From a virus: 10,813 bases of DNA. Location of the stretch: UHGV virus genome UHGV-0281911, one strand, 5' to 3'. The notes below the pieces were generated by a model. That model was not told where the DNA came from. It saw only the letters and a list, made by a program, of their open reading frames with translations, and searched no databases. The stretch's first letter is position 1. Each line of letters begins with the position of its first letter. Position numbers and translations under genes: made by a program. Below, piece by piece: positions 1 to 10,813 of the stretch.

Positions 1-79
1 CCTTTACAGCCTTCACAAGGCGATTCCACGCTTTTTCCTGTTCTGGCGTCAGGTCGATTAATTCCTGCAAAGTTGCCAT
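1..79 (-). CDS. Hypothetical phage protein, N-terminal fragment (gene runs off the window start)
   Basis: Minus-strand ATG at 79-77 opens MATLQELIDLTPEQEKAWNRLVKAVK... and continues past position 1. It starts 1 nt after the stop (83-81) of the upstream same-strand gene. Confidence 0.4.
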   Translation of the reverse strand, partial: MATLQELIDLTPEQEKAWNRLVKAVK

Positions 80-80
80 A

Positions 81-740
81 TCACTCTCCTTTGATGCGAA
101 TGCCAGCGGCGCGGATAGATTTCCATTGTTCCCACATGCGGTTGAAGTCTGTTCCTGATAAGGTCGCGTTACGGTATCCAGTTTCGGTGCGCAATCCTTC
201 AAGCGTCGATTTGGAAATACAAATTGAATGCATTACCCATGATTCAAACAAATCACGCTCCCGAGCTTCGCAACTTTGTTTACTCATCTCTTCAATGCAT
301 TGTTTAGCTTCTAAATCAGCAATTCTGTCAACTACGGCATCGACGGCATCTGAAAAGCCGAACCAGTTACTCCACTCAGGCCTATCCCCGGTTGCTGCAA
401 AGTACATATCAGCTAAAGCAGACTCAGCATGGTCACGCTCGTTGATGAGTTGCTCTTCGCTTTTCTCCAGTTCTGCTATGCGCTTTTTTGCTGCTTCCAG
501 CTCAACGCGCAGCTTCCCTACCGTTAGCGCAATATCCTCGTTCTCCTGGTCGCGGGATTTGATGTATTGCTGGTTCCTTTCCCGTTCATCCAACAATGCC
601 AGCGCGATATCTGGCGAAAAGTGCTTCATAAAATCGTTAAGCGCATTAATTCGCTGATCGAAAGGCATTACAGGTGCTTCACCAGCAATTTTTGTTTTTT
701 CAGCGATTTCACGAAGCTTTTGATAGTCAATCTTGCTCAC
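81..740 (-). CDS. Phage protein with coiled-coil character, possibly Ead/Ea22-like family
   Basis: 219-aa ORF starting MSKIDYQKLREIAEK, charged heptad-like middle section. The plus-strand ORF over the same span (73..657) is Ser-rich and low-complexity, typical of antisense. Start overlaps the stop of the 737..1174 gene by 4 nt. Family name is from memory only. Confidence 0.6.
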   Translation of the reverse strand: MSKIDYQKLREIAEKTKIAGEAPVMPFDQRINALNDFMKHFSPDIALALLDERERNQQYIKSRDQENEDIALTVGKLRVELEAAKKRIAELEKSEEQLINERDHAESALADMYFAATGDRPEWSNWFGFSDAVDAVVDRIADLEAKQCIEEMSKQSCEARERDLFESWVMHSICISKSTLEGLRTETGYRNATLSGTDFNRMWEQWKSIRAAGIRIKGE

Positions 741-1174
741 TGGCTGCCTCCTTTGCGAAGCTGGGCGGCTAACTCATCACATATGTGCGTCAAAGAACAA
801 AGTTTGATTGATGGATGTTCGCGCATCATCTCTACCCCCTGCGCCCGCACTTCAGACAGGAAAGCATCGGTGGCTGGCATATTTCCTGTTGCCTTCATTG
901 CCTCCAAAATAACCAGAACGCCATCTCGCCCAATCTCCTCGCAGATAACCTCGGTGCTGTCGCCAACAACATCGCAAAATGCCTGAACTGCTTTACGAGC
1001 CAGCGCATTCTCCGCAGCCAGCGCATTAGCACGCACCAGTTGCACTTCCAGTTGCGTTGCCAAATAGCTGATCAGCTTTGCCACACTGCGCATATCAACG
1101 GCACCACATTCTGCTTTCAGTTCCGAAGCCATCTCATGCCCGGCGGCAACTAACCCTTTGATATTACTTTCCAT
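737..1174 (-). CDS. Hypothetical phage protein
   Basis: 145-aa ORF, same strand and tightly packed with neighbours (4-nt overlap with the downstream gene). The antisense ORF 815..1153 looks like low-complexity junk. Confidence 0.65.
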   Translation of the reverse strand: MESNIKGLVAAGHEMASELKAECGAVDMRSVAKLISYLATQLEVQLVRANALAAENALARKAVQAFCDVVGDSTEVICEEIGRDGVLVILEAMKATGNMPATDAFLSEVRAQGVEMMREHPSIKLCSLTHICDELAAQLRKGGSQ

Positions 1175-1235
1175 CTTTACCCTCGCTTATCCACATAACT
1201 TATTGATTACATTGATAACTAAAAAGATCGTCGAT

Positions 1236-1580
1236 TCAGAACTCTTCGATGTTCCAGCCACCACCTGCTTTCTTTGGTTTAACCGTTACCCCGATGATTC
1301 GGAACGGATACTGATCTGCGGCGACTTTGGTTTTCACCCTGGCGTCGTCGGTCCAGAAACCTTTCACTTCGTGCAGTTCCATCTCGCCGGTGGCGAGCAT
1401 CACAGCAAAATCGGGCGTATAGAACGTGTTGTCAGCTAATCGCAGCTTGATACCCTCAAATCGATACCAGGCGATTTCCCCTGCACGTTTACGCAGCTCA
1501 AGGTGCTGGCAATACGCAGATTCTGTTTTGTTCATCTGGCCTGTTTTGAGTCGACCAAGAGCCTGTATCTGTTTTCTCAT
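1236..1580 (-). CDS. Small phage protein, possibly DUF1064-like (putative PD-(D/E)XK-fold)
   Basis: 114-aa ORF. Upstream reads AGGGGTAAATT-ATG (Shine-Dalgarno-like) and a promoter/operator module sits directly 5'. Family assignment is from memory and unverified. Confidence 0.6.
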   Translation of the reverse strand: MRKQIQALGRLKTGQMNKTESAYCQHLELRKRAGEIAWYRFEGIKLRLADNTFYTPDFAVMLATGEMELHEVKGFWTDDARVKTKVAADQYPFRIIGVTVKPKKAGGGWNIEEF

Positions 1581-1583
1581 AAT

Positions 1584-1660
1584 TTACCCCTGAGGTAATT
1601 AAAAACCACATAAGACACGAAATCAATAGAGTTTAGAATATTTTATTACCTCACAGGTAA
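1584..1660 (-). promoter_or_regulatory. Repressor-controlled promoter module: operator (1646-1660), -35 TTGATT (complement of 1621-1626), 17-bp spacer, -10 TTTAAT (complement of 1598-1603), operator (1584-1598)
   Basis: Two TTACC-N5-GGTAA palindromes (TTACCCCTGAGGTAA, TTACCTCACAGGTAA) 62 bp apart centre to centre. Operator to -35 gap is 19 bp and -35 to downstream operator gap is 22 bp, identical to the PL-like module at 4639-4715. Confidence 0.5.
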
Positions 1661-1667
1661 TTATCGA

Positions 1668-1692
1668 GACGTAAAAAAATGCGCTATCGCGC
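1668..1692 (-). terminator. Possible weak intrinsic terminator after the P-like gene
   Basis: On the minus-strand transcript, a short GCGC/GCGC stem with GAUA loop is followed by a run of seven U (plus strand aaaaaaatgcgctatcgcgc). The stem is only 4 bp, so this is tentative. Confidence 0.3.
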
Positions 1693-1697
1693 TGGTA

Positions 1698-2474
1698 TTA
1701 CTTGATAAATCCTGCCGCCTTTCCCCGCCTGTATTCCTCCATCAGCCACTGCGCCGGTGTTATTCCCCCAAGGGTGGCGGCGTTAGGCATGCACCCGAAA
1801 CTTCGCCCTGGTGGATGGTAAACGTCTCTCCCTGTGTCCGGAGGCGTACTCATGGGTTCTGGCTTTGCCTGTATGCTGATCACCGGATCGGGTATCTGCT
1901 GTCCTGAAGCCACCTTTTTCGCCCAATCATCGAGCAGCCTGCGCGCGTGTTTCTCAACCTCAATCTCGCTAAGCTGGCGCTGATACATTGCACGGCGGGT
2001 ATCACATACGACCCAGTACATAACCGGGTGCCGCCACGGGAATCTTTCGGGACCACCAGGATATAAACTTTTTTCCTTGCTGTACCGGTGAAACTCTGCC
2101 ATCACATCGTCAATGGTGACGCCAAGAACCATCTTGCTGTCTTTACACCACTTGATGAATTGCCCTGGCGACGGCCAGAACGGAGACTCACTGGCGCGGG
2201 CGTGGCGCATACCAGCGTTAACCTGTTCCATTGTAGTGATCCCATTCTCCAGAAACGCAAGCATCCATTGCTTACGGAATTCATTAAGTTTGTTCTGCTC
2301 CCTTATGGTCGAAACGCTTGCGGGAAATGCAGCCTGTAACTGGACAAATAGTTCATTGAAAATTCTAGCGACCTGCTCCTTTTTGCCATTGCTGTCACGC
2401 CGCTCTTCATGCACAGCAACACCATGCTCACGTAAGCGATCGTACTCATTGAGAAGTTCTGGAGTTGATTTCAT
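1698..2474 (-). CDS. Replication protein P-like (DnaB helicase loader)
   Basis: 258 aa. The segment QVARIFNELFVQLQAAFPAS...WMLAFLENGITTMEQVNAGMRHAR...PSPGQFIKWC closely parallels lambda P as I remember it (QVAQIINGVFSQLLATFPAS...WVLAFRENGITTMEQVNAGMRVAR...PSPGQFVAWC). Lies directly downstream of the O-like gene. Confidence 0.85.
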   Translation of the reverse strand: MKSTPELLNEYDRLREHGVAVHEERRDSNGKKEQVARIFNELFVQLQAAFPASVSTIREQNKLNEFRKQWMLAFLENGITTMEQVNAGMRHARASESPFWPSPGQFIKWCKDSKMVLGVTIDDVMAEFHRYSKEKSLYPGGPERFPWRHPVMYWVVCDTRRAMYQRQLSEIEVEKHARRLLDDWAKKVASGQQIPDPVISIQAKPEPMSTPPDTGRDVYHPPGRSFGCMPNAATLGGITPAQWLMEEYRRGKAAGFIK

Positions 2475-3270
2475 CCCACACCCCTTCTATCCAGTCAGTG
2501 TTATTCCAGTCAAGCTCATCGCTTTTCCCGGCGTTTTTTGATTTTCCCCTGATATGATTTACGTGCCTGGCGAATTTTTGTTCCCACTGAACCTGCGTGA
2601 ACACTTTGCCCTCAGCCATCCAGTAATCCCGGAATGCAGCAAGTTCAGCAGGTGTAAATTCCGGTTCCGGCAGGGCCGTTCCCCACAGCGCAGCACGCCG
2701 TCGAAAATCCGGCGACGGATGCCAGCCATCGGTCATCGGAAATTTCCCGATGGGTTCACTCAGGCCATCCAGAAATTCAGGTTCAGCCACCTGCAACGGC
2801 ATACCGTTCGCTTCACTGGTCGGAGCACCCTCGCGCACGTGCGCTATGTGTGGGGTTTTATATATATCTTCCTCTTCCTCTGGTAACTCCTTTTGTAACG
2901 CTGTTGGCGTTACTTTTTGCGTTACTCGTTTTCGATGCTCTGCCACTCTTCTATTCGTAAGTGCACGTTTTTTCGATGATTCTCCATTGTGTCGCTCAAA
3001 GTTTGGAAGAATTAGTTTGCCGTCATGATAAGCAAGCCATCCGACGCTAATGAGGGCGTCAGCAAATCCTGTAATAAAAGCGAGTCTATCAAGTACTCCT
3101 TTTGTAACGCTGCCAGCGTTACCGTCTATTGTTTGCTGGTCAGCCCATGCCCATATACGAACCAGCTTTCCAAGAACAGCATCTGGATCAATACCCAGAA
3201 TTTCTGCTATCTGAAAAATTTCAGGTTTATCAGGAGTGATAACTTCAACCTTAATCCAGCTGCTTGCCAT
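2446..3270 (-). CDS. Phage replication initiator/organizer (O-like position) with DnaT-like C-terminal domain
   Basis: C-terminal GKFPMTDGWHPSPDFRRRAALWGTALPEPEFTPAELAAFRDYWMAEGKVFTQVQWEQKFARHV resembles E. coli DnaT C-terminus ([26 protein letters not shown]...[20 protein letters not shown]). Start placed at ATG 3270 (MASSWIKV) because AAGAGGGGAAACCT precedes it; the ORF-track start at 3288 has no Shine-Dalgarno. Confidence 0.8.
   Translation of the reverse strand: MASSWIKVEVITPDKPEIFQIAEILGIDPDAVLGKLVRIWAWADQQTIDGNAGSVTKGVLDRLAFITGFADALISVGWLAYHDGKLILPNFERHNGESSKKRALTNRRVAEHRKRVTQKVTPTALQKELPEEEEDIYKTPHIAHVREGAPTSEANGMPLQVAEPEFLDGLSEPIGKFPMTDGWHPSPDFRRRAALWGTALPEPEFTPAELAAFRDYWMAEGKVFTQVQWEQKFARHVNHIRGKSKNAGKSDELDWNNTDWIEGVWDEINSRTSQ
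2887..2913. repeat. Iteron-like repeat copy 1 (CTCCTTTTGTAACGCTGTTGGCGTTAC) inside the O-like gene
   Basis: Near-identical 27-bp copy at 3096-3122. Contains inverted arms GTAACGC/GCGTTAC, with a further GCGTTAC half-site at 2919-2925. Lies in the acidic linker-coding part of the gene beside an AT-rich stretch (ttttatatatatc). Confidence 0.5.
3096..3122. repeat. Iteron-like repeat copy 2 (CTCCTTTTGTAACGCTGCCAGCGTTAC), containing a perfect 19-bp palindrome GTAACGCTGCCAGCGTTAC
   Basis: Direct repeat of 2887-2913, 209 bp away. The two copies are translated in different reading frames of the same gene (VTPTALQKE versus NAGSVTKG), so conservation is at the DNA level. Confidence 0.5.
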
Positions 3271-3463
3271 AGGTTTCCCCTCTTGCACTCTTTAGTGCAC
3301 AAGCAAATTCATTACGATGGCGGTTGGCGCTATTCATTGCACATTCAACACATGTTCCGTTCAGAACATACCTTTCAGAGAGATGGCCGTGACGGCACCG
3401 CTTTCCTGTGAAATAGCGATTTAACCCGGCTTTTGCGGCCTCCATTCTGGTTACTATCTTCAA
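3251..3463 (-). CDS. Small zinc-ribbon protein (CxxC...CxxC) at the cII-equivalent position
   Basis: 70-aa ORF with CRHGH...CVEC motifs. The candidate TTG start at 3463 is preceded by AAGAGG with an 8-nt spacer; an alternative ATG start lies at 3445. Sits between the tR1-like terminator and the O-like gene. Confidence 0.5.
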   Translation of the reverse strand: MKIVTRMEAAKAGLNRYFTGKRCRHGHLSERYVLNGTCVECAMNSANRHRNEFACALKSARGETYGKQLD

Positions 3464-3541
3464 TTTTTCCGCCTCTTTTTGTTATTGATATTGGATATTT
3501 TGCACAATTGGAAAATTTGATCAACCAGATTTGGTTTTTTA

Positions 3542-3556
3542 TTACCTTTGAGGTAC
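3542..3556. promoter_or_regulatory. Isolated operator-like palindrome TTACCTTTGAGGTAC (one half-site imperfect)
   Basis: Matches the TTACC-N5-GGTAA motif found at the immunity region. Lies immediately promoter-distal to the tR1-like hairpin. Confidence 0.3.
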
Positions 3557-3570
3557 GAATAGATATGAAA

Positions 3571-3590
3571 AGACCGCCGGGTGGCGGTCT
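3571..3590 (-). terminator. tR1-like intrinsic terminator downstream of the cro-like gene
   Basis: Inverted repeat AGACCGCC-GGGT-GGCGGTCT. On the minus-strand transcript the stem is followed by UUUUCAU. Lies 21 nt after the cro-like stop. Confidence 0.45.
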
Positions 3591-3611
3591 ACAGAGGGTT
3601 GTAGCTGGATA

Positions 3612-3842
3612 TCATGAGTAGAAGAAGTATGCCAGTTCTGCTTTTGAGCGCAGCCATTGTCTTGTTTTACAGGCTTTAAAAAGCCCATTCATCAATACTT
3701 TACCTGGCATTTTGCGCTTACCTGTTAAGTGAGTCTGGATATAGTGACTCGTCGTTCCGGCTTCCTGTGCGAAGGCTTCACGCTCATCCGGAGTAAGTGC
3801 AAGCCAGTGCTTTTTGAAATCGAAATGTCCGTTATCGCTCAT
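3612..3842 (-). CDS. Cro-like small HTH regulator
   Basis: 76-aa ORF with an HTH-like segment (LTPDEREAFAQEAGTTSHYIQTHLTGKR). Divergent from the repressor gene across an operator-rich intergenic region and followed by a terminator and replication genes, as cro is in lambda. Confidence 0.7.
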   Translation of the reverse strand: MSDNGHFDFKKHWLALTPDEREAFAQEAGTTSHYIQTHLTGKRKMPGKVLMNGLFKACKTRQWLRSKAELAYFFYS

Positions 3843-3867
3843 AGCTATTGCCTGATATTTATTTCAG

Positions 3868-3941
3868 ATAATAAATATTCACCCATAAGGTAACAAAAAT
3901 CAAGGATAGTTACCTATGAGGTGCATTTACCTGTTGGGTAA
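3868..3941. promoter_or_regulatory. OR-like region: three operator palindromes (3879-3893, 3910-3924, 3927-3941) with a PR-like promoter for cro on the minus strand; a weak PRM-like promoter for the repressor probably lies just downstream (about 3954-3982)
   Basis: Sites TCACCCATAAGGTAA, TTACCTATGAGGTGC, TTACCTGTTGGGTAA. The minus strand reads TTGTTA-17 bp-TATTAT (complement of 3891-3896 and 3868-3873), overlapping the first operator. Plus-strand candidate TTGAAT (3954-3959)-16 bp-TATGAG would give a near-leaderless repressor mRNA. Confidence 0.5.
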
Positions 3942-3996
3942 TATTGCTTTAAATTGAATCATCTACTGATTCATATATGAGGCGATTTTCCAGAAA

Positions 3997-4581
3997 ATGA
4001 AAAGTATCCAGGACGTCCGCAGGCAAAATCTCAACGACTTGATCGACCGTGAATTCAATGGTGTTCAGACGCGGATGGCAGAAAAACTTGGAACTCAGGC
4101 AAATCTGGTAAACCGCTGGGCTCTTGGCAAGAAGGTTATCGGCGACCAGGTTGCGCGAAAAATTGAAGCTGCCGCCAATAAACCCCGTAACTGGCTTGAT
4201 ATCGATCGCTCGCTTTCTCAGGAGGGGTTTCAGCCTGTCGGCCCAAGCGACATTGGTCAGCTGGCGGCTCACAACCTGGAACGCTGGATGAGCGAAAGCC
4301 GCGACCTTTCAACGCAGGGAAAACTACACCGCGCATCCGGCGTCGCCCAGGTGACAATCAGCCGCCTGTTAAACAATGAAGTCAGCGTTTCCATTTCCAC
4401 CCTGGAGAATGTTGCATCCGCATTCGGGCGTCACGGCTATGAATTACTGATTCACCCGCACGACCCTGCGACTATCAACTATGACCGCTCGCGCTACGCA
4501 TTGTTACCCGAAACAGAGAAGGCAAAGATCGAAAGTTACATTGAATTTGTCATCAGCCAGAACGAAAGAAGCAAACAATAA
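3997..4581 (+). CDS. CI-like prophage repressor with two HTH (XRE-like) domains and no recognisable S24 peptidase domain
   Basis: 194 aa. N-terminal HTH QTRMAEKLGTQANLVNRWALGKK and a second HTH-like segment ASGVAQVTISRLLNNEVSVSISTLENVASAFG. I see no Ala-Gly/Ser-Lys LexA-like cleavage module. Divergent from cro-like and followed by a strong terminator. Confidence 0.8.
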   Translation: MKSIQDVRRQNLNDLIDREFNGVQTRMAEKLGTQANLVNRWALGKKVIGDQVARKIEAAANKPRNWLDIDRSLSQEGFQPVGPSDIGQLAAHNLERWMSESRDLSTQGKLHRASGVAQVTISRLLNNEVSVSISTLENVASAFGRHGYELLIHPHDPATINYDRSRYALLPETEKAKIESYIEFVISQNERSKQ

Positions 4582-4601
4582 AACTATAGTTTTCAGTAAG
4601 T

Positions 4602-4628
4602 AAGCCGCCTCATGGCGGCTTTTTTATT
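4602..4628 (+). terminator. Rho-independent terminator after the repressor gene
   Basis: AAGCCGCC-TCAT-GGCGGCTT stem-loop followed by TTTTTATTG, 20 nt after the repressor stop codon. Confidence 0.75.
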
Positions 4629-4638
4629 GCCAACAAGA

Positions 4639-4715
4639 TTACCTTATGGGTAATTTTTTTAACTCATATCTATTGACATCAAACCAAATACGCATAATTA
4701 TTACCTCAACGGTAA
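4639..4715 (+). promoter_or_regulatory. PL-like early promoter module: operator (4639-4653), -35 TTGACA (4673-4678), -10 AATTAT (4696-4701), operator (4701-4715)
   Basis: Perfect -35 hexamer with 17-bp spacing to an A/T-rich -10, flanked by TTACCTTATGGGTAA and TTACCTCAACGGTAA, which are 62 bp apart. Drives the plus-strand recombination operon. Confidence 0.55.
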
Positions 4716-4734
4716 CAGACCGAGGTAACAAGTT

Positions 4735-4887
4735 ATGCAGTGGAAAATCATCAACGGTTGGTACTGCGTTACTGCATGCGGATTCATGAGCTGGAAGTTC
4801 CGCACCTTACAGGAAGGCATTAAGTGGGCTTTCGTCAGCAAAGAAGCTCGCGATGTGGCCAACGATAACGAGATATGGGAGGGCTGA
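4735..4887 (+). CDS. Small hypothetical protein (50 aa), first ORF of the PL-like operon; not in the supplied ORF track
   Basis: ATG at 4735 preceded by GAGGTAACAAGTT. Translates MQWKIINGWYCVTACGFMSWKFRTLQEGIKWAFVSKEARDVANDNEIWEG and ends 2 nt before the next gene. Confidence 0.4.
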   Translation: MQWKIINGWYCVTACGFMSWKFRTLQEGIKWAFVSKEARDVANDNEIWEG

Positions 4888-4889
4888 TA

Positions 4890-5189
4890 ATGAACGTTAA
4901 TCAGCAGAAAAATCTTCAAAAAATCATGCTGGCATTCGACAAGGACTACCGCCTGTCAGAACAGCTATATGACCGACAAGTTGAACTGATTGAGAGCATC
5001 CGACTTCATCAACTGTCCTCAACTTTCGACGTTGTAACAGGCAAAGGCGTTCGTCAGGAAGTGCTGGAGGCTGCTAAAGACAGCCCTGAGTTCGAAGAAC
5101 TGATGGATTCCTACCGGCGCGAGGCAATGGCAATTATAGCGCGCTGGGATCTGGCGGATCAGCTTGATGGGCAGAGGGAAGCGGCATGA
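4890..5189 (+). CDS. Hypothetical phage early protein (99 aa)
   Basis: ATG at 4890 preceded by GGGAGGG. The stop overlaps the start of the exonuclease gene (ATGA at 5186-5189), suggesting translational coupling. Confidence 0.6.
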   Translation: MNVNQQKNLQKIMLAFDKDYRLSEQLYDRQVELIESIRLHQLSSTFDVVTGKGVRQEVLEAAKDSPEFEELMDSYRREAMAIIARWDLADQLDGQREAA

Positions 5190-6007
5190 AACCGGGAATT
5201 TATTTCGACATCAGCAACGAAGACTACCACGCCGGTGACGGCGTGAGTAAGTCGCAACTGGACATGGTTGCCAAGAATCCGGCGCTTCTTAAATGGGTTC
5301 AGGCAGCACCAGAAGACGAAGAGAAAAAGTCTGCACTGGATATGGGAACCGCATTGCACTGTCTGCTTCTGGAGCCTGGAGAATTCGACAAACGCTTCAT
5401 TGTTTCACCGAAGTTCGATCGTCGGACGAAACAAGGTAAAGCTGACGAAGAAGCATTTCTTCGTGATGTAGCGGATATGGGGATTACGGTACTTGATGCC
5501 GAGCAGTGGCGGAAACTGGAGCTGATGCGTGATAGCGCAATGGCTCACCCGGCGGCACGCTGGATGCTGGAAGCACCTGGTTACTGCGAAGCATCAATGT
5601 ACTGGAACGATGAAGAGACGGGTGAGTTGTGCCGAATTCGTCCAGACAAATGGCTGAACGAGCACAACGTGATCGTCGACGTGAAAAAGGTTGCAGATAT
5701 GGACCGTTTTGCACGTCACATCGAGGAATTCCGCTACCACGTGCAGGACGCAATGTACCGCGAAGGCGCAATGAGGATTACTGGTCAGCCGCATGGTTTT
5801 TTCTTTCTTGCCGTGAGCGAAAGCATTGATTGTGGTCGGTATCCGGTACGCGTGTTCGGGCTGGATGCGCCGGATGTCGATGCCGGGCACGCTCTGTTCC
5901 GCCGGGATCTGAATACCTATCACGAATGCCGCATCAGCGATGAATGGGGCGGCGTGGAAATTATTAAACGCCCTGAGTGGGCACGCAAACAGGATATGTA
6001 CGTATGA
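5186..6007 (+). CDS. PD-(D/E)XK exonuclease, RecE (exonuclease VIII) C-terminal-domain-like
   Basis: 273 aa. Candidate catalytic motifs IRPDKW and IVDVKKV. Preceded by GAGGGAAG and translationally coupled to the downstream annealase gene (ATGA at 6004-6007). Family is from memory (DUF3799 / PDDEXK-like). Confidence 0.7.
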   Translation: MKPGIYFDISNEDYHAGDGVSKSQLDMVAKNPALLKWVQAAPEDEEKKSALDMGTALHCLLLEPGEFDKRFIVSPKFDRRTKQGKADEEAFLRDVADMGITVLDAEQWRKLELMRDSAMAHPAARWMLEAPGYCEASMYWNDEETGELCRIRPDKWLNEHNVIVDVKKVADMDRFARHIEEFRYHVQDAMYREGAMRITGQPHGFFFLAVSESIDCGRYPVRVFGLDAPDVDAGHALFRRDLNTYHECRISDEWGGVEIIKRPEWARKQDMYV

Positions 6008-6921
6008 GCAACGAAATTGCAATCACCAATGATGTGTTGGCTATTCGGGGAATCGATGAAGTTACATGGAGCGCTCTGAAAAACAGTATTTACCCTGGGG
6101 CAAAAGATGAATCGGTAATGATGGCAGTCGATTACTGCCGGGCGCGTCAACTCGATCCTCTTCTTAAGCCGGTACACCTGGTACCAATGAGTGTTAAAGA
6201 CTCGAAGAGTGGAAAGAATGAATGGCGCGACGTGGTCATGCCTGGCATTGGACTTTATCGCATTCAGGCCTACCGTTCCGGCGATTACGCAGGCGCTAAT
6301 GAACCTGAGTTCGGTCCAGATGTAACACAAACGCTTTCAGGCGTGGAGGTTACCTTCCCTCAGTGGTGTAAGTACACCGTCAGCAAGCGAATGGCAAGCG
6401 GGGAAATCGTAGAGTTTAGCGCCAAAGAATACTGGATTGAGAACTATGCAACTGGGGGGCGTGACACATCGGCACCAAATGCCATGTGGAAAAAGCGCCC
6501 TTATGCGCAGTTGGCAAAATGCGCAGAGGCACAGGCATTACGTAAAGCATGGCCGGAGATTGGTCAACAAGCCACAGCTGAGGAAATGGAAGGTAAATAT
6601 ATCGACTCACCTGACATTATTGAACGTGACGTAACTCCAAGAAGTCAGGCAAAGCACGGCACAGCATCCAGCATGAACAGTCTGATCAACGCTAAAACAG
6701 TGAAAAAGCCTGATGAGCAAACGCGTAAAGCGGATAGCCGTGATCCAGAAGAAATGCTGATGGCCTTTACCAGCGCAGCGATGAATTACAGCACTGTCTC
6801 CGAACTGGATAAGGCTTACAAATACATTGCACAAAAACTTTCAGATGATGACGAACTGCTGGCAAAAGCCACCGACGTTTACAGCGTTCGTCGGGAAGAA
6901 TTAAACGAAACATCTATGTAA
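6004..6921 (+). CDS. RecT/Red-beta (Bet) family single-strand annealing protein
   Basis: Start ATG 6004 (MSNEIAITND). Segments DYCRARQLDPLLKPVHLVPM, VMPGIGLYRIQ and AMWKKRPYAQLAKCAEAQALRKAWPE parallel lambda Bet as I remember it (QYGLNPWTKEIYAFP, VVGVDGWSRII, GPWQSHPKRMLRHKAMIQCARLAFG). Paired with an upstream exonuclease. Confidence 0.8.
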   Translation: MSNEIAITNDVLAIRGIDEVTWSALKNSIYPGAKDESVMMAVDYCRARQLDPLLKPVHLVPMSVKDSKSGKNEWRDVVMPGIGLYRIQAYRSGDYAGANEPEFGPDVTQTLSGVEVTFPQWCKYTVSKRMASGEIVEFSAKEYWIENYATGGRDTSAPNAMWKKRPYAQLAKCAEAQALRKAWPEIGQQATAEEMEGKYIDSPDIIERDVTPRSQAKHGTASSMNSLINAKTVKKPDEQTRKADSRDPEEMLMAFTSAAMNYSTVSELDKAYKYIAQKLSDDDELLAKATDVYSVRREELNETSM

Positions 6922-6970
6922 CCACCACCGCGGCGCCACGCGCGCCGCACTGCAACCAAGAGAGGTATTT

Positions 6971-7219
6971 ATGAAAGGTGCATTAGGTAAGAAGGAACTC
7001 CTGGCGGTGGTGCCACTGTCATGGAGCACTATCGACCGTATGGAGCGCGCAGGTGAATTTCCTAAACGCTGGTATATCACTGACAAACGCTGCGCATGGA
7101 ACCGTGACGAAGTTGAGCGTTGGCTTGATGAACGTCAGGCAGCAAGCCCGGCAGAGTTCCAGGGTAAAAAGCCTCCTGTTCAGCAACGTGTATATCGTCC
7201 TGTGAGCAACGCTGCATGA
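6971..7219 (+). CDS. AlpA/Xis-family DNA-binding protein (putative excisionase or regulator)
   Basis: 82 aa with SWSTIDRMERAGEFPKRWYITDKRCAWNRDEVERWLDER, typical of AlpA-type excisionase-like winged-helix proteins. Preceded by AGAGAGG. Confidence 0.7.
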   Translation: MKGALGKKELLAVVPLSWSTIDRMERAGEFPKRWYITDKRCAWNRDEVERWLDERQAASPAEFQGKKPPVQQRVYRPVSNAA

Positions 7220-7361
7220 GTGTGCTGCTAAGGCACTGGAGCAAATGGTCAGGATGGTACTTATTCCTGGCCTCTGTTTCAGCATGGCTTTATCTGCTGG
7301 CATTAATTTTCAGAGAGGGTTGGATTAAGTGAGAAAGTTAAGCCGACTTGAAAAATATCAC

Positions 7362-7628
7362 ATGAATAAGGTTTCAATGCGCAGTCCGTCAAAGATTGTC
7401 GCCGTTACTCCTGCGGCGATAGAGATCGAAAAACGCGCGATTGAAAGAGAGAAAAAAGGGCAATTCCGCATTGCCGCTCACCTTTGGCTTCAGTGTATGG
7501 ATGTTGCTTCTGGTGATGTTGAACGTGCAAGGATCGCGGTTCGCAGGGACCAATGTATCACAAAAGGTAACGGCCTTCGCCGTGGCGACTATAGCGGCAT
7601 AGGATGTTGCGGGGTGGTTTATGAATAA
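7362..7628 (+). CDS. Small protein, possibly PerC-family transcriptional regulator; start uncertain (ATG 7362 or 7377; the ORF-track start 7329 is a GTG right after an in-frame stop)
   Basis: The segment EKKGQFRIAAHLWLQCMD...ERARIAVRRDQC follows the G-x-W/F-R-x-A-A-x-x-W-L...RR..C pattern I recall for PerC/Pch proteins. No search was run. Confidence 0.45.
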   Translation: MNKVSMRSPSKIVAVTPAAIEIEKRAIEREKKGQFRIAAHLWLQCMDVASGDVERARIAVRRDQCITKGNGLRRGDYSGIGCCGVVYE

Positions 7629-7656
7629 TCAAAACAATAATGTAAAAGGTAATATC

Positions 7657-8724
7657 ATGAGCAAGGTAGGCGATTATTTCTTTGAATTTCCCGCATCACG
7701 AGGAACGCAGGGAAGCACTGTAATACTTATGATGACAGTACCAGCAAGAGCACTATCGAGAGTATTGGCAACCGACAATACGGGAAGTACCCTTGAACGT
7801 TCTCAACGTGAAATTAATCCAACCAGGGTAAAAAAGTTTTATCAATATTTAGTCAACGCTTACGAGAAAAAGGAACCATTTATTGTTCCACCATTGGTCG
7901 GAAATTGTAACTCAGAAATAGAGTTCCATGAGATTGGAAATACTAATGTCGGTTTAGCTAGATTTCCTATGGATGCAGAAATAAAATTATTTGATGGACA
8001 GCATCGTGCTGCAGGATTAGCTGAGTTCTGCCGTAATTATGGCGAAACAATTATGATTCCTCTTATGCTTACGCATAACCTTCCTTTGAAGGCGCGTCAG
8101 CAGTTCTTTTCTGACATTAATAATAATGTTTCAAAACCATCTGCAGCAATTAATATGGCGTATGACGGACGAAACGATGTTGCCCAAGAAATGGTGTCTT
8201 TCCTGTCGCAACATGACACTTTTGCAGAAGTCACTGACTTCGAGCACAACGTTGTTCCGTCAAAGTCAAACATGTGGGTGAGTTTCAAAGCATTAAGTGA
8301 TTCAACATCAAAATTTTGTATTCATAATGGGAAAAAACTAGAAATTGGTAACATCGAGTCAGTATGGGAATCATGGTTATGTCTTACACAACTAGAAGCA
8401 ATTCGCCATGGTACAAAGCAATCAGAATACAAAAGAGAATATATCCAGTTTCATGCAGTGATGATTAACGCTTTTGGCTATGCTGTTCAGCAAATGATGG
8501 TTAATCACTCAATAAAAGAAATAATTTCAATGATTGAAACATTATGTGCAAATACTGACTTCGCAGAAAGAGAGAATTTTTTCCTAATGGATAATTGGGT
8601 TGGGATCTGCACGAAAGCAAGCCAGGAAAAACTATCAGTTATTGCCAATGTAGCAGCACAGAAAGCGGCAGCAAACAGGCTGATACAAGCCTTTACCAAA
8701 GGAAGTCTGGGAGCAGAACAATGA
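7657..8724 (+). CDS. DGQHR-domain protein (DndB-like, ParB/Srx superfamily); alternative start at ATG 7621
   Basis: Exact DGQHR motif in KLFDGQHRAAGLAEF, N-terminal YFFEFPASRGTQG and a downstream FFSDINNN motif. ATG 7657 is preceded by AAAAGG with a 7-nt spacer. The stop overlaps the methyltransferase start (ATGA at 8721-8724). The gene is markedly AT-rich. Confidence 0.8.
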   Translation: MSKVGDYFFEFPASRGTQGSTVILMMTVPARALSRVLATDNTGSTLERSQREINPTRVKKFYQYLVNAYEKKEPFIVPPLVGNCNSEIEFHEIGNTNVGLARFPMDAEIKLFDGQHRAAGLAEFCRNYGETIMIPLMLTHNLPLKARQQFFSDINNNVSKPSAAINMAYDGRNDVAQEMVSFLSQHDTFAEVTDFEHNVVPSKSNMWVSFKALSDSTSKFCIHNGKKLEIGNIESVWESWLCLTQLEAIRHGTKQSEYKREYIQFHAVMINAFGYAVQQMMVNHSIKEIISMIETLCANTDFAERENFFLMDNWVGICTKASQEKLSVIANVAAQKAAANRLIQAFTKGSLGAEQ

Positions 8725-9368
8725 AAAAATACACGCTAATCTATGCAGATCCACCCTGGGTATACCGGGACAAAGCCGCAGATGGTAATCGCGGTGCCGG
8801 TTTTAAATATCCGGTTATGAGTGTGCTGGATATCTGCCGCCTTCCTGTGTGGGATTTGGCCGATGAAAACTGTCTGTTGGCCATGTGGTGGGTGCCAACA
8901 CAACCACTCGAAGCACTAAAAGTTGTTGAAGCCTGGGGATTTCGTCTGATGACCATGAAGGGCTTCACGTGGATAAAATGTGGTAGTCGACAACCAGATA
9001 AACTGGTTATGGGGATGGGACACATGACTCGCGCCAACAGTGAAGATTGCCTGTTTGCGGTAAAGGGAAAACTACCTCCGCGCATTAATGCAGGTATCGT
9101 TCAGTCATTTACCGCACCGCGGCTTGAGCATTCAAGAAAACCAGATGTCGTTCGTGAAAAACTTGTGCAATTGTTAGGCGATGTTTCTCGCATTGAACTG
9201 TTCGCCCGCCAAACGTCTCATGGCTTCGATGTTTGGGGTAATCAGTGCGAAGACCCAGCAGTGCAACTACACCCTGGATACGCGTTGTATATTGCCGGAT
9301 TAACAAATGCATTCAGCAATGCTCCGCTGTCACCAACAGACAACCAGGGGCGGGAGCGTGCAGCATGA
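8721..9368 (+). CDS. MT-A70 family N6-adenine DNA methyltransferase
   Basis: Catalytic DPPW motif near the N-terminus (MKKYTLIYADPPWVY). 215 aa. Translationally coupled to both the upstream DGQHR gene and a downstream small ORF. Confidence 0.85.
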   Translation: MKKYTLIYADPPWVYRDKAADGNRGAGFKYPVMSVLDICRLPVWDLADENCLLAMWWVPTQPLEALKVVEAWGFRLMTMKGFTWIKCGSRQPDKLVMGMGHMTRANSEDCLFAVKGKLPPRINAGIVQSFTAPRLEHSRKPDVVREKLVQLLGDVSRIELFARQTSHGFDVWGNQCEDPAVQLHPGYALYIAGLTNAFSNAPLSPTDNQGRERAA

Positions 9369-9559
9369 ACAGGGCATCACCAGCAGATTTAAGGAAATGC
9401 CTTGAAACTGCAAACATGCTTGCACACAGCGGGATCAGGTTTGTTCCAATTCCCGCTGTCACTGATGCTGAATTTGCAACACTGTCAGCAATATTCACAG
9501 ATAAAATTGAATCACTGGCAGCAGAAGCCGAGATGGAAGAAAATCAGCAGAATAATTAA
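9365..9559 (+). CDS. Small hypothetical protein (64 aa) with acidic C-terminus, last gene of the cargo operon
   Basis: ATG 9365 overlaps the methyltransferase stop (ATGA) and is preceded by GGGAG. Ends 3 nt before the convergent integrase stop codon. Confidence 0.5.
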   Translation: MNRASPADLRKCLETANMLAHSGIRFVPIPAVTDAEFATLSAIFTDKIESLAAEAEMEENQQNN

Positions 9560-9562
9560 ACG

Positions 9563-10813
9563 TTATTCCCCCGGCATCCACTTCTCAAACTTCGACGGGG
9601 AGAACGGAATCAGATCCGTATGCTCCCCGTCAATCCAGGAATCAATCATATCGGCCCACTGCTGCAACATGTAGGCGCGCTGTCTGGCGTATTCCGCTTT
9701 GTTATATACGGCGCGCACACCTTTCTGCTCATGTGCCAGAGCCTTTTCAATCCAGTCTGAAGGATAACCAGCCTCATGCAACAATGTACTGGCTGTACGG
9801 CGCATATCGTGTACGGTGAAGCCCTGAATATGCTCACCATCTTCATTTATTATTTTCACCGTTCTGTCGATCAGAGAGTTCAGCGCGGCATTAGATAATG
9901 GCTTCCGGAAATTGTAACGACCAGGAACCAGATATTCACTTCCACCAGCGCACATCTGCAATCCGACCAATATATCCTGAGCCTGTTTAGGCAGGTAAAT
10001 AACGTGCGCCCGGCTTCCCTTCATGCGGTCTGAAGGAATGGTCCATGTCCATTTTTTAAAATCTATTTCATCCCACGTTGCGTTGGTGAATTCGCCTTTA
10101 CGAACCATAGTGATAAGCACCAGCTTTAAAGCCATTTTCATAGTGCCCATAGCACCAATGGCATCCAGCGTGCGGAAGAACAGGCCAATTTCTTCTGGTG
10201 TCAGTGTTCGCTCTCTTGGTTTAAATATGGCGATAGACGAAGGTTTAATGTCAGCCGCAGGATTAAACAAACCATGACCACGGTCATTGGCGTGACGGTA
10301 TACGCTACTGATGATCTCCCTGGCCTGCACTGCTGTTGCCCGGCCACCGCGTTCGACAATCCGGTCACACAAATCACGAACCATCGATGTGGTAATTTCA
10401 GCCATCATTTTATTGCCAAGAACCGGAAGTATGTCACGGTCGATCACCGCCTGTTTCATTGCGCGGGTACTGTCAGCCAGGATGACGTGTTTCATATAAC
10501 TGTCGGTATGTACCGCAAACGTCTCGGCACCACGAATCTTTTTGATACCGTCACGTTTAGCCGCAGCCGGTGACTGGCCTGCTTTAAGCAGCTTCTTTGC
10601 AGCAATCAGTTCTTCTCGCGCTTCTGCCAGGCTGATACCGTCACGCCCATACTGCCCGATTACCAGCGTTTCGCGGCGACCGTTGATACGGTAGTCGTAG
10701 CGAAACGAGACCGTGCCTGACGTAAGCACAGCTACATACAGCCCGTCACGATCGGAGACCTTGTACAGTTTGTCCTGCGGCTTGAGGTTTTTTAATTTTG
10801 TATCGGTAAGCAC
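9563..10813 (-). CDS. int: Tyrosine site-specific integrase (P4/CP4-57-like, N-terminal arm-binding domain); 5' end at or just beyond the window edge
   Basis: N-terminus LTDTKLKNLKPQDKLYKVSDRDGLYVAVL is typical of this integrase class. C-terminal HDMRRT box and downstream Tyr (AVYNKAEY). The first in-window codon is GTG, so 1-3 codons may be missing. Confidence 0.9.
   Translation of the reverse strand: MLTDTKLKNLKPQDKLYKVSDRDGLYVAVLTSGTVSFRYDYRINGRRETLVIGQYGRDGISLAEAREELIAAKKLLKAGQSPAAAKRDGIKKIRGAETFAVHTDSYMKHVILADSTRAMKQAVIDRDILPVLGNKMMAEITTSMVRDLCDRIVERGGRATAVQAREIISSVYRHANDRGHGLFNPAADIKPSSIAIFKPRERTLTPEEIGLFFRTLDAIGAMGTMKMALKLVLITMVRKGEFTNATWDEIDFKKWTWTIPSDRMKGSRAHVIYLPKQAQDILVGLQMCAGGSEYLVPGRYNFRKPLSNAALNSLIDRTVKIINEDGEHIQGFTVHDMRRTASTLLHEAGYPSDWIEKALAHEQKGVRAVYNKAEYARQRAYMLQQWADMIDSWIDGEHTDLIPFSPSKFEKWMPGE

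Follow-up and report, generated by a model that had tools for sequence, protein, structure and literature searches.

A probable antirepressor-controlled lysogeny repressor of the SPC32H Rep family in epsilon15-like Escherichia coli prophages

The window analyzed here is a stretch of 10,813 nucleotides from the virus genome UHGV-0281911. The gene under study, rep, encodes a protein of 194 residues; on one side it diverges from a cro-like gene, and on the other a recombination operon runs rightward. This is the CI position in a lambdoid immunity layout, as the preliminary description of the locus had assumed. The direct neighbors of rep are the cro-like gene and a small phrog_898 ORF. Past rep, the rightward operon comprises small genes, a PD-(D/E)XK exonuclease, a RecT/Bet recombinase, an AlpA-like regulator, and a PerC-like protein. 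Further along follow a DGQHR protein, a methyltransferase, and then an integrase gene that points leftward, while the replication genes (DnaT-like and P-like) are situated beyond the cro-like gene. The position of the cro-like gene matches that of SPC32H_042 in the Salmonella phage SPC32H and of phiV10 p41, and the gene order around rep is common to SPC32H, phiV10, and the window. In phiV10, a terminator is annotated at the place equivalent to the hairpin that follows rep. Overall, the window is a mosaic of the epsilon15-like phage group.

Positions 71-10813 of the window are 100% identical to several chromosomes of poultry/APEC E. coli, including CP160125, where the prophage is inserted between yfgI and guaA. 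The whole prophage was taken from CP160125 (locus L003); a window coordinate is the L003 coordinate minus 33714. The features of both regions are compiled in Table 1.

Table 1 Genes, protein segments, and predicted regulatory sites of the immunity region and of the ant locus. Positions refer to the window unless marked L003
Feature	Position	Strand	Basis and remarks
rep, ORF of the 194-aa probable lysogeny repressor	3997..4581	+	ATG start, stop codon included; SPC32H Rep family
N-terminal HTH domain, aa 1-70, predicted DNA-binding domain	3997..4206	+	HTH_3, YdaS-HTH; 54% identity to SPC32H Rep
Second HTH_3-like segment, aa 89-155, predicted dimerization domain (MDD)	4261..4461	+	Pfam; 5D4Z; 33% identity to SPC32H
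C-terminal tail, aa 156-194, predicted tetramerization/Ant-binding element (CAD/TetDloop)	4462..4578	+	No Pfam match; 51% identity to SPC32H
Intrinsic terminator-like hairpin and T-run, end of rep transcript	4602..4621	+	8-bp stem, 6 GC pairs
cro-like gene, 76 aa, divergent from rep	3612..3842	-	phrog_35 'transcriptional repressor', E = 5.6e-13
Terminator-like hairpin after cro-like gene	3590-3571	-	Scan
OR-like predicted operator cluster, three TTACC-N5-GGTAA palindromes between rep and cro-like gene	3879-3893, 3910-3924, 3927-3941	.	Enrichment
PR-like promoter TTGTTA-17-TATTAT for cro-like gene	3868..3896	-	Consensus match only, 9/12; palindrome 3879-3893 in spacer
PL-like promoter-operator cassette	4639..4715	+	Palindromes 4639-4653 and 4701-4715, 62 bp center to center
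PL-like promoter TTGACA-17-AATTAT, before rightward operon	4673-4701	+	Consensus 10/12; bracketed by palindromes 4639/4701
Second cassette copy, upstream of DUF1064 gene	1584..1660	-	Palindromes 1584-1598 and 1646-1660, 62 bp apart
Single one-mismatch palindrome TTACCTTTGAGGTAC	3542..3556	.	Downstream of the terminator of the cro-like gene
ant, 85-aa gene	L003 10038-10295		88% identity to SPC32H Ant; 5D50_E 'Anti-repressor protein', E = 4.1e-47
Predicted LexA box TACTGTATAAATATACAGTT	L003 9998-10017		Ends 22 bp upstream of ant ATG; 18/20 to consensus

Rep has close relatives among the phages. By tblastn, its identity is 98.5-99% to the repressors annotated in the Escherichia phages phiV10 (p40), TL-2011b, HEMP4, ZX5, and others, 75-78% to repressors of Enterobacter phages, and 45% to those of Klebsiella phages of the genus Uetakevirus. 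Save for one weak match in a Pseudomonas phage, all tblastn matches lie in epsilon15-like podophages of this genus. The GenBank note on phiV10 p40 reads 'two helix-turn-helix motifs (PF01381); similar to putative repressor epsilon15p38'.

One relative has been crystallized. In a search of PDB sequences, residues 1-190 of Rep aligned to residues 2-197 of 5D50_A, a 'Repressor' of 199 aa, with E = 4.5e-42, and 5D4Z, a C-terminal fragment of SPC32H Rep (Rep 92-198), was matched with E = 4.6e-20. The protein in 5D50/5D4Z was identified as SPC32H Rep through tblastn of the phage collection. Its crystal structures cover the repressor alone (5D4Z) and in complex with the antirepressor Ant (5D50). In BLASTP, Rep and the product of SPC32H rep (KC911856) share 42% identity (E = 2e-53) and align with no large gaps. 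A single-sequence AlphaFold2 model of Rep reached a mean pLDDT of 45.5 and a pTM of 0.23, too low to be usable, and our argument on the fold is based on the full-length homology to 5D50/5D4Z.

As described in PMC9986798, three parts make up SPC32H Rep: a DNA-binding domain (DBD) at the N-terminus, a dimerization domain in the middle (MDD), and, at the C-terminus, an element (CAD/TetDloop) that tetramerizes via Phe187 and Phe190 and carries the contact to Ant. According to PMC9638917, the Rep tetramer binds palindromic sites with paired DNA-binding domains from different dimers, and an Ant tetramer binds two Rep dimers.

The identity between Rep and SPC32H Rep is unevenly spread over these parts. 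The N-terminal domain (residues 1-70) is 54% identical, and the helix N36-L37-V38-N39-R40-W41 is invariant. The linker (residues 71-88) retains 22% and the middle HTH-like domain (residues 89-155) 33% identity. The C-terminal tail (residues 156-190) reaches 51%, with I160, Y162, D163, Y167, L170, P171, E174, K175, K177, I178, I182, F184, Q188, and N189 being invariant. In the alignment, the tetramer-interface residue F187 of SPC32H corresponds to Y181, and F190 corresponds to F184, which is invariant in four family members. The parts predicted to read the DNA and to bind Ant and form the tetramer are thus the best-conserved regions of Rep, in keeping with an Ant that is almost unchanged.

The DNA around rep carries a recurrent motif. 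The palindrome TTACC-N5-GGTAA, usually in the form ATTACC-N5-GGTAAT, is strongly over-represented and occurs eight times in the window. With up to two mismatches allowed, the window holds 14 such palindromes against 2.9 expected, a count reached by none of 200 shuffles. With at most one mismatch, we counted 16 in the whole prophage (0.8 expected) and 18 in SPC32H (0.7 expected), and again no shuffle reached these counts (100-200 shuffles per sequence). The arrangement is shared as well. SPC32H has three palindromes between rep and gene 042 (34390, 34407, and 34437), in the same place and with the same spacing as the cluster in the window, and two pairs with a distance of 62 bp (33604/33666 and 35972/36034). 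The PL-like cassette of the window aligns in register with the former pair, and the latter pair is the equivalent of the second cassette of the window. Because of their position, enrichment, and conservation, the palindromes are natural candidates for the operators of the phage and are likely the sites of the Rep tetramer.

Neither an antirepressor gene nor a LexA box had been noticed in the window in the preliminary description, which placed the trigger of induction elsewhere in the prophage. Our searches agree with this for the window: it contains no homologue of Ant, no exact CTGT-N8-ACAG, and nothing within three mismatches of the 20-bp LexA consensus. LexA-like sites with one mismatch to the short motif, among them 4501-4516 inside rep, number four against 3.4 expected and are attributed to chance. 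A search of the remaining prophage for a LexA-controlled antirepressor yielded a candidate. In CP160125, which is identical to the window over positions 71-10813, ant lies outside the window about 27.4 kb from rep, at the opposite end of the prophage, where it adjoins the tailspike gene. On the phage map, where attP lies between them, the distance from ant to rep is about 11 kb.

The ant gene is preceded by TACTGTATAAATATACAGTT, which is the sole site within three mismatches of the 20-bp LexA consensus in the 47-kb locus (0 expected). Two exact CTGT-N8-ACAG matches at L003 25171 and 29719 were rejected as additional SOS boxes; they have GC-rich centers and more than three mismatches to the 20-bp consensus. 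In a simple promoter scan of the region upstream of ant, a sigma-70 consensus on the + strand overlapping the LexA box was not found. The setting of ant is conserved. In SPC32H, ant (86 aa) has the virion/injection genes on one side and, on the other, the tailspike gene, from which it diverges. In phiV10, the position of ant is occupied by the 85-aa 'hypothetical protein' p24, which shares 88% identity with SPC32H Ant; upstream of it stands taCTGTgtatttatACAGtt, a perfect CTGT-N8-ACAG. The region between ant and the tailspike gene has a mean column identity of 86% over the CP160125 prophage, phiV10, and SPC32H. The LexA box is kept in this region, and in all three phages one palindrome is found about 40 bp upstream of it.

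A repressor inactivated by an antirepressor rather than by self-cleavage had been proposed for the window beforehand. The proposal gains support from a homologue crystallized together with its Ant and from an Ant with 88% identity to that protein in the identical prophage; likewise, the trigger probably lies with the distant ant, behind the only near-consensus LexA box. The lytic switch of SPC32H by Rep and Ant is reportedly the subject of Kim and Ryu (2013, J Virol) and Kim et al. (2016, PNAS). In the former work, SPC32H Rep is said to stay uncleaved in the SOS response, and LexA is said to repress ant via a box that overlaps the ant promoter.

Another candidate for the inducer is encoded near ant. 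The gene at L003 11446-12132, in the ant/tailspike region, encodes a protein with a Bro-N domain (E = 1.5e-19), and its phiV10 counterpart p23 is annotated as 'putative anti-immunity protein'. Such a protein could act like P22 Ant as the main or an additional antirepressor, which would leave the small Ant redundant or auxiliary. The gene is flanked by candidate Rep operators (L003 11067, 11160, and 12205). If Rep does bind there, however, the Bro-N protein would be expressed only once Rep had already been inactivated. There is no LexA-like box near the Bro-N gene, and SPC32H, which has no annotated Bro-N gene between its virion genes and ant, nevertheless induces via Ant. We regard a role of the Bro-N protein as main or additional inducer as improbable and favor the small Ant as the inducer.

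Two stretches of Rep are matched by the Pfam family HTH_3 when the whole protein is searched (E = 1.2e-9), in line with the two XRE-like HTH segments of the preliminary description. Scanned alone, residues 24-67 match HTH_3 with E = 0.013 and a YdaS HTH family with 4.5e-4 (residues 21-61), and residues 105-146 match HTH_3 with 4.7e-6, HTH_26 with 1.1e-5, and LacI-HTH with 5.5e-6. When the two segments were aligned to each other as a test for internal duplication, no similarity was detectable. Hence, 'tandem', the word used for them at first, describes an architecture and not a recent duplication.

As the middle segment is the stronger Pfam match for an HTH (HTH_3 and LacI-HTH), Rep might read DNA with both segments as a two-headed binder, which would set it apart from the SPC32H model. 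In the solved homologue, however, the equivalent region is described as a dimerization domain (PMC9986798). The middle segment is also the least conserved folded part of Rep, whereas the N-terminal recognition helix is invariant. Furthermore, the half-sites of the candidate operators are identical in SPC32H and the window phage, and one palindromic motif accounts for all sites. A second DNA reader is thus very improbable. 'Tandem HTH' holds as a description of the sequence, but the second segment is a dimerization module in the solved relative, and we assign it the same role in Rep on the ground of homology.

From the CI position of rep, one would in general expect a repressor of the LexA/CI type that has a cryptic module for self-cleavage and undergoes RecA-stimulated autoproteolysis. 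Profile searches of the 194-aa protein returned the two HTH segments and no S24 module: the Peptidase_S24 and LexA families gave no match in Pfam at E ≤ 1 and none in NCBIfam at E ≤ 0.1. The sequence has no Ala-Gly or Cys-Gly dipeptide that could serve as a cleavage site, and BLASTP against E. coli LexA gave only noise (E about 2). Rep hence carries neither of the two marks of an autocleaving repressor, the C-terminal Peptidase_S24 domain with its Ser/Lys dyad and the AG/CG site. Behind the second HTH, the protein goes on for only about 40 residues, and its last 44 residues have no match in Pfam. Judged by the full-length homology to SPC32H Rep, with its solved DNA-binding domain, dimerization domain, and tetramerization tail, the architecture leaves no space for an S24 fold. 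On the strength of these sequence comparisons, autocleavage of Rep is effectively excluded, and we give it next to no probability; the absence of a LexA/CI S24 module noted at the outset is confirmed on each of these counts.

The notion that the protein is an antitoxin or another XRE-type regulator, taken from the label 'plasmid maintenance system antidote protein VapI' in the record of phage BP9 and from weak sub-threshold NCBIfam matches to the HTHs of the HigA and HipB antitoxins, is equally negligible, as the score for TIGR02607 is 18.7 bits against a cut-off of 47.7, so that Rep shows neither an above-cut-off score nor the adjacent toxin gene of a HigA/VapI-type antitoxin, and as several things speak for a lysogeny repressor: where the gene lies in the immunity region, its divergence from the cro-like gene, the candidate operators on its flanks, and its homology to a repressor that has been defined experimentally.

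At the level of sequence, Rep shares with SPC32H Rep the full-length homology and the three-part architecture with aromatic residues at the interface positions, and it likewise comes without an S24 domain or autocleavage site and with a cognate Ant that has a LexA box at its gene. We consider it highly probable that the gene in the window encodes the lysogeny repressor of a common Uetakevirus prophage of E. coli of the phiV10/epsilon15/SPC32H type and that this repressor is controlled by an antirepressor.

From this, the following course of events can be proposed. The N-terminal HTH of Rep would read the DNA, the middle HTH-like domain would dimerize, and the short C-terminal element would build the tetramer and dock the antirepressor. 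The tetramer would sit on ATTACC-N5-GGTAAT palindromes. Some of these lie over the PR-like promoter from which the cro/replication operon would be read, and pairs 62 bp apart would enclose two early promoters, the PL-like one that serves the recombination operon and another one. Occupancy of these palindromes by Rep would keep the prophage silent. Rep itself would be incapable of self-cleavage, and the host LexA would keep ant off through the near-consensus SOS box. Upon DNA damage, RecA*-stimulated cleavage of LexA would allow Ant to be made. Ant would then bind the C-terminal region of Rep, the tetramer would leave the DNA, and the lytic promoters would fire. For this phage, we infer the binding of Rep to Ant, the tetramerization, the control by LexA, and the identity of the operators from sequence comparisons. 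We also assume that the interaction between Rep and Ant survives the divergence of Rep, which is 42% identical to its SPC32H counterpart, while Ant is 88% identical.

The same figures, 88% identity in Ant against 42% in Rep, together with the shared half-sites, cassettes, and recognition helix, suggest that epsilon15-like prophages may cross-talk. In addition, the 14-18 palindromes are dispersed across the genome, one of them just ahead of ant and several near the Bro-N gene, and with these sites Rep would act as a genome-wide silencer. Taken jointly, the epsilon15-like prophages would form one cross-talking regulatory group with Rep as a genome-wide silencer, a reading that we put forward tentatively and consider rather doubtful as a whole. 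If cross-talk did occur, the Ant of one phage would induce diverged relatives, and Rep would give at least partial cross-immunity. If Rep were a genome-wide silencer, it would also damp the ant locus, via site pairs with a spacing of 62 bp that is matched to the trans geometry of the tetramer.

Both genes are widespread. Of 5426 complete E. coli genomes, 537 carry rep (549 places) and 529 carry ant (546 places), nearly equal numbers that correspond to about 10% in either case. In RefSeq, Rep is labeled 'helix-turn-helix domain-containing protein' and Ant 'hypothetical protein', and the main practical value of our analysis is the annotation of the Rep/Ant pair. Where this pair is recognized, the prophages should be SOS-inducible via LexA and Ant, reversibly and with the repressor left intact. 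The prophages concerned include K1-specific ones that carry an endosialidase, in avian pathogenic strains, and the phiV10-type prophages of O157. The LexA box of ant is, moreover, a single site where a point mutation could give a constitutively lytic prophage; SPC32N reportedly differs from SPC32H by a point mutation in this box.

The mechanism is already known in the genus Uetakevirus, with crystal structures, and our analysis raises no new mechanistic question. To our knowledge, the E. coli variant of Rep and Ant itself has not been characterized previously. The induction had at first been called 'non-canonical', which is accurate, yet this mode has been described for SPC32H since 2013/2016.

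Compared with lambda CI, P22 C2, and LexA, Rep is alike in its position in the immunity region, in the cro-like gene that diverges from it, and in OR-like and OL-like clusters of candidate operators. It differs from them in that it has no S24 domain and no cleavage site, and in the predicted short C-terminal tetramer element and the predicted reversible inactivation by protein binding.

The repressors of the Gifsy phages, which the preliminary description had named as an example, are functional analogues, but the nearest relative of Rep is SPC32H Rep. The repressors of Gifsy-1/2/3, which lack S24, are reportedly inactivated by small SOS-controlled antirepressors encoded far from the immunity region (Lemire et al. 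2011). Membership of Rep in the Gifsy family was considered and rejected: identity to the 136-aa repressor of Gifsy-1 (STM2628) amounts to 10 of 40 residues (25%), within the HTH only, and Gifsy-1, although present in the phage collection searched, was not matched by tblastn with Rep at E ≤ 1e-5. Unlike Rep, the Gifsy-1 repressor has a single HTH and stems from a siphovirus background.

Rco/Rap of the Bacillus plasmid pLS20 (TetDloop) is a more distant parallel. Rco combines an N-terminal HTH DNA-binding domain with a C-terminal p53-like tetramerization element and is relieved by an antirepressor (PMC9986798). It differs from Rep in that it has no middle dimerization domain and no sequence homology in the tail, and it serves a switch of plasmid conjugation.

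The repressor of phiV10 (p40) and TL-2011b, annotated and uncharacterized, is in essence this very gene within another prophage mosaic. The characterized system that comes closest is SPC32H. Both phages belong to the genus Uetakevirus and share the gene order, the three-part Rep, the position of ant beside the tailspike gene with a LexA box, and TTACC-N5-GGTAA palindromes in equivalent promoter cassettes. In contrast to Ant, Rep has strongly diverged between the two (33% identity in the middle domain and 22% in the linker). The window phage further differs from SPC32H in its host, E. coli, in the endosialidase tailspike beside ant, and in the extra Bro-N gene nearby.

A palindrome of the candidate Rep operator type (ATTACC-N5-GGTAAT) lies about 40 bp upstream of the LexA box of the antirepressor gene ant, and it is kept in all three phages compared (the L003 prophage, phiV10, and SPC32H). 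This conservation suggests that the lysogeny repressor Rep acts also at the divergent ant/tailspike promoter region. A gene for a Bro-N domain protein in the same region is flanked on both sides by further candidate Rep operators (L003 11067, 11160, and 12205). Its counterpart in phiV10 is annotated as a "putative anti-immunity protein," and the position of the region resembles that of immI in P22. The Bro-N protein may be a second antirepressor.

Two exact CTGT-N8-ACAG matches elsewhere in the prophage were considered as further SOS boxes and rejected, as both match the full LexA consensus poorly; they are probably due to chance.

Features of the window and of L003, the prophage locus of E. 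coli CP160125
Feature	Location	Strand	Basis
Cys-rich 70-aa ORF, function unknown, CII position	window 3251-3463	-	phrog_1081, E=2.2e-27
Additional palindrome beyond the hairpin of the cro-like gene	window 3542-3556		
Terminator-like hairpin immediately 3' of the cro-like gene	window 3571-3590	-	
Exonuclease	window 5186-6007	+	ORF
RecT/Bet	window 5977-6921	+	ORF
DGQHR-domain (DndB-like) protein	window ~7657-8724 (RefSeq start approximate), within region 7621-9368	+	annotation
MT-A70 family methyltransferase	window ~8721-9368	+	annotation
Tailspike (endosialidase)	L003 6722-9841	-	annotation in chromosomes identical to the window
Palindrome upstream of the ant LexA box	L003 9946-9960		
Bro-N domain protein	L003 11446-12132	+	Pfam, E=1.5e-19
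CTGT-N8-ACAG	L003 25171-25186		exact match
CTGT-N8-ACAG, upstream (~70 bp) of a gene of the Gp49/Sf6-gp66 family	L003 29719-29734		exact match

Because its tailspike is an endosialidase, the epsilon15-like prophage in the window-identical chromosomes is specific for the K1 capsule. The hosts are APEC and poultry strains (O2:K1:H5). Genomes that are otherwise 100% identical leave the window unmatched from position 1 to about 70, their matches beginning at 71-77. This indicates either that the ead/Ea22-like gene contains a mosaic joint or that the source strain is a different one.

The exonuclease and RecT/Bet are encoded by two distinct, overlapping ORFs, whereas a single fused "recET" gene is annotated at this place in phiV10. 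The genes for the DGQHR-domain protein and the MT-A70 methyltransferase also overlap, and the pair adjoins the integrase. At the equivalent position, phiV10 carries a methylase alone, while a methyltransferase and a "DNA-sulfur modification protein" are annotated in SPC32H.
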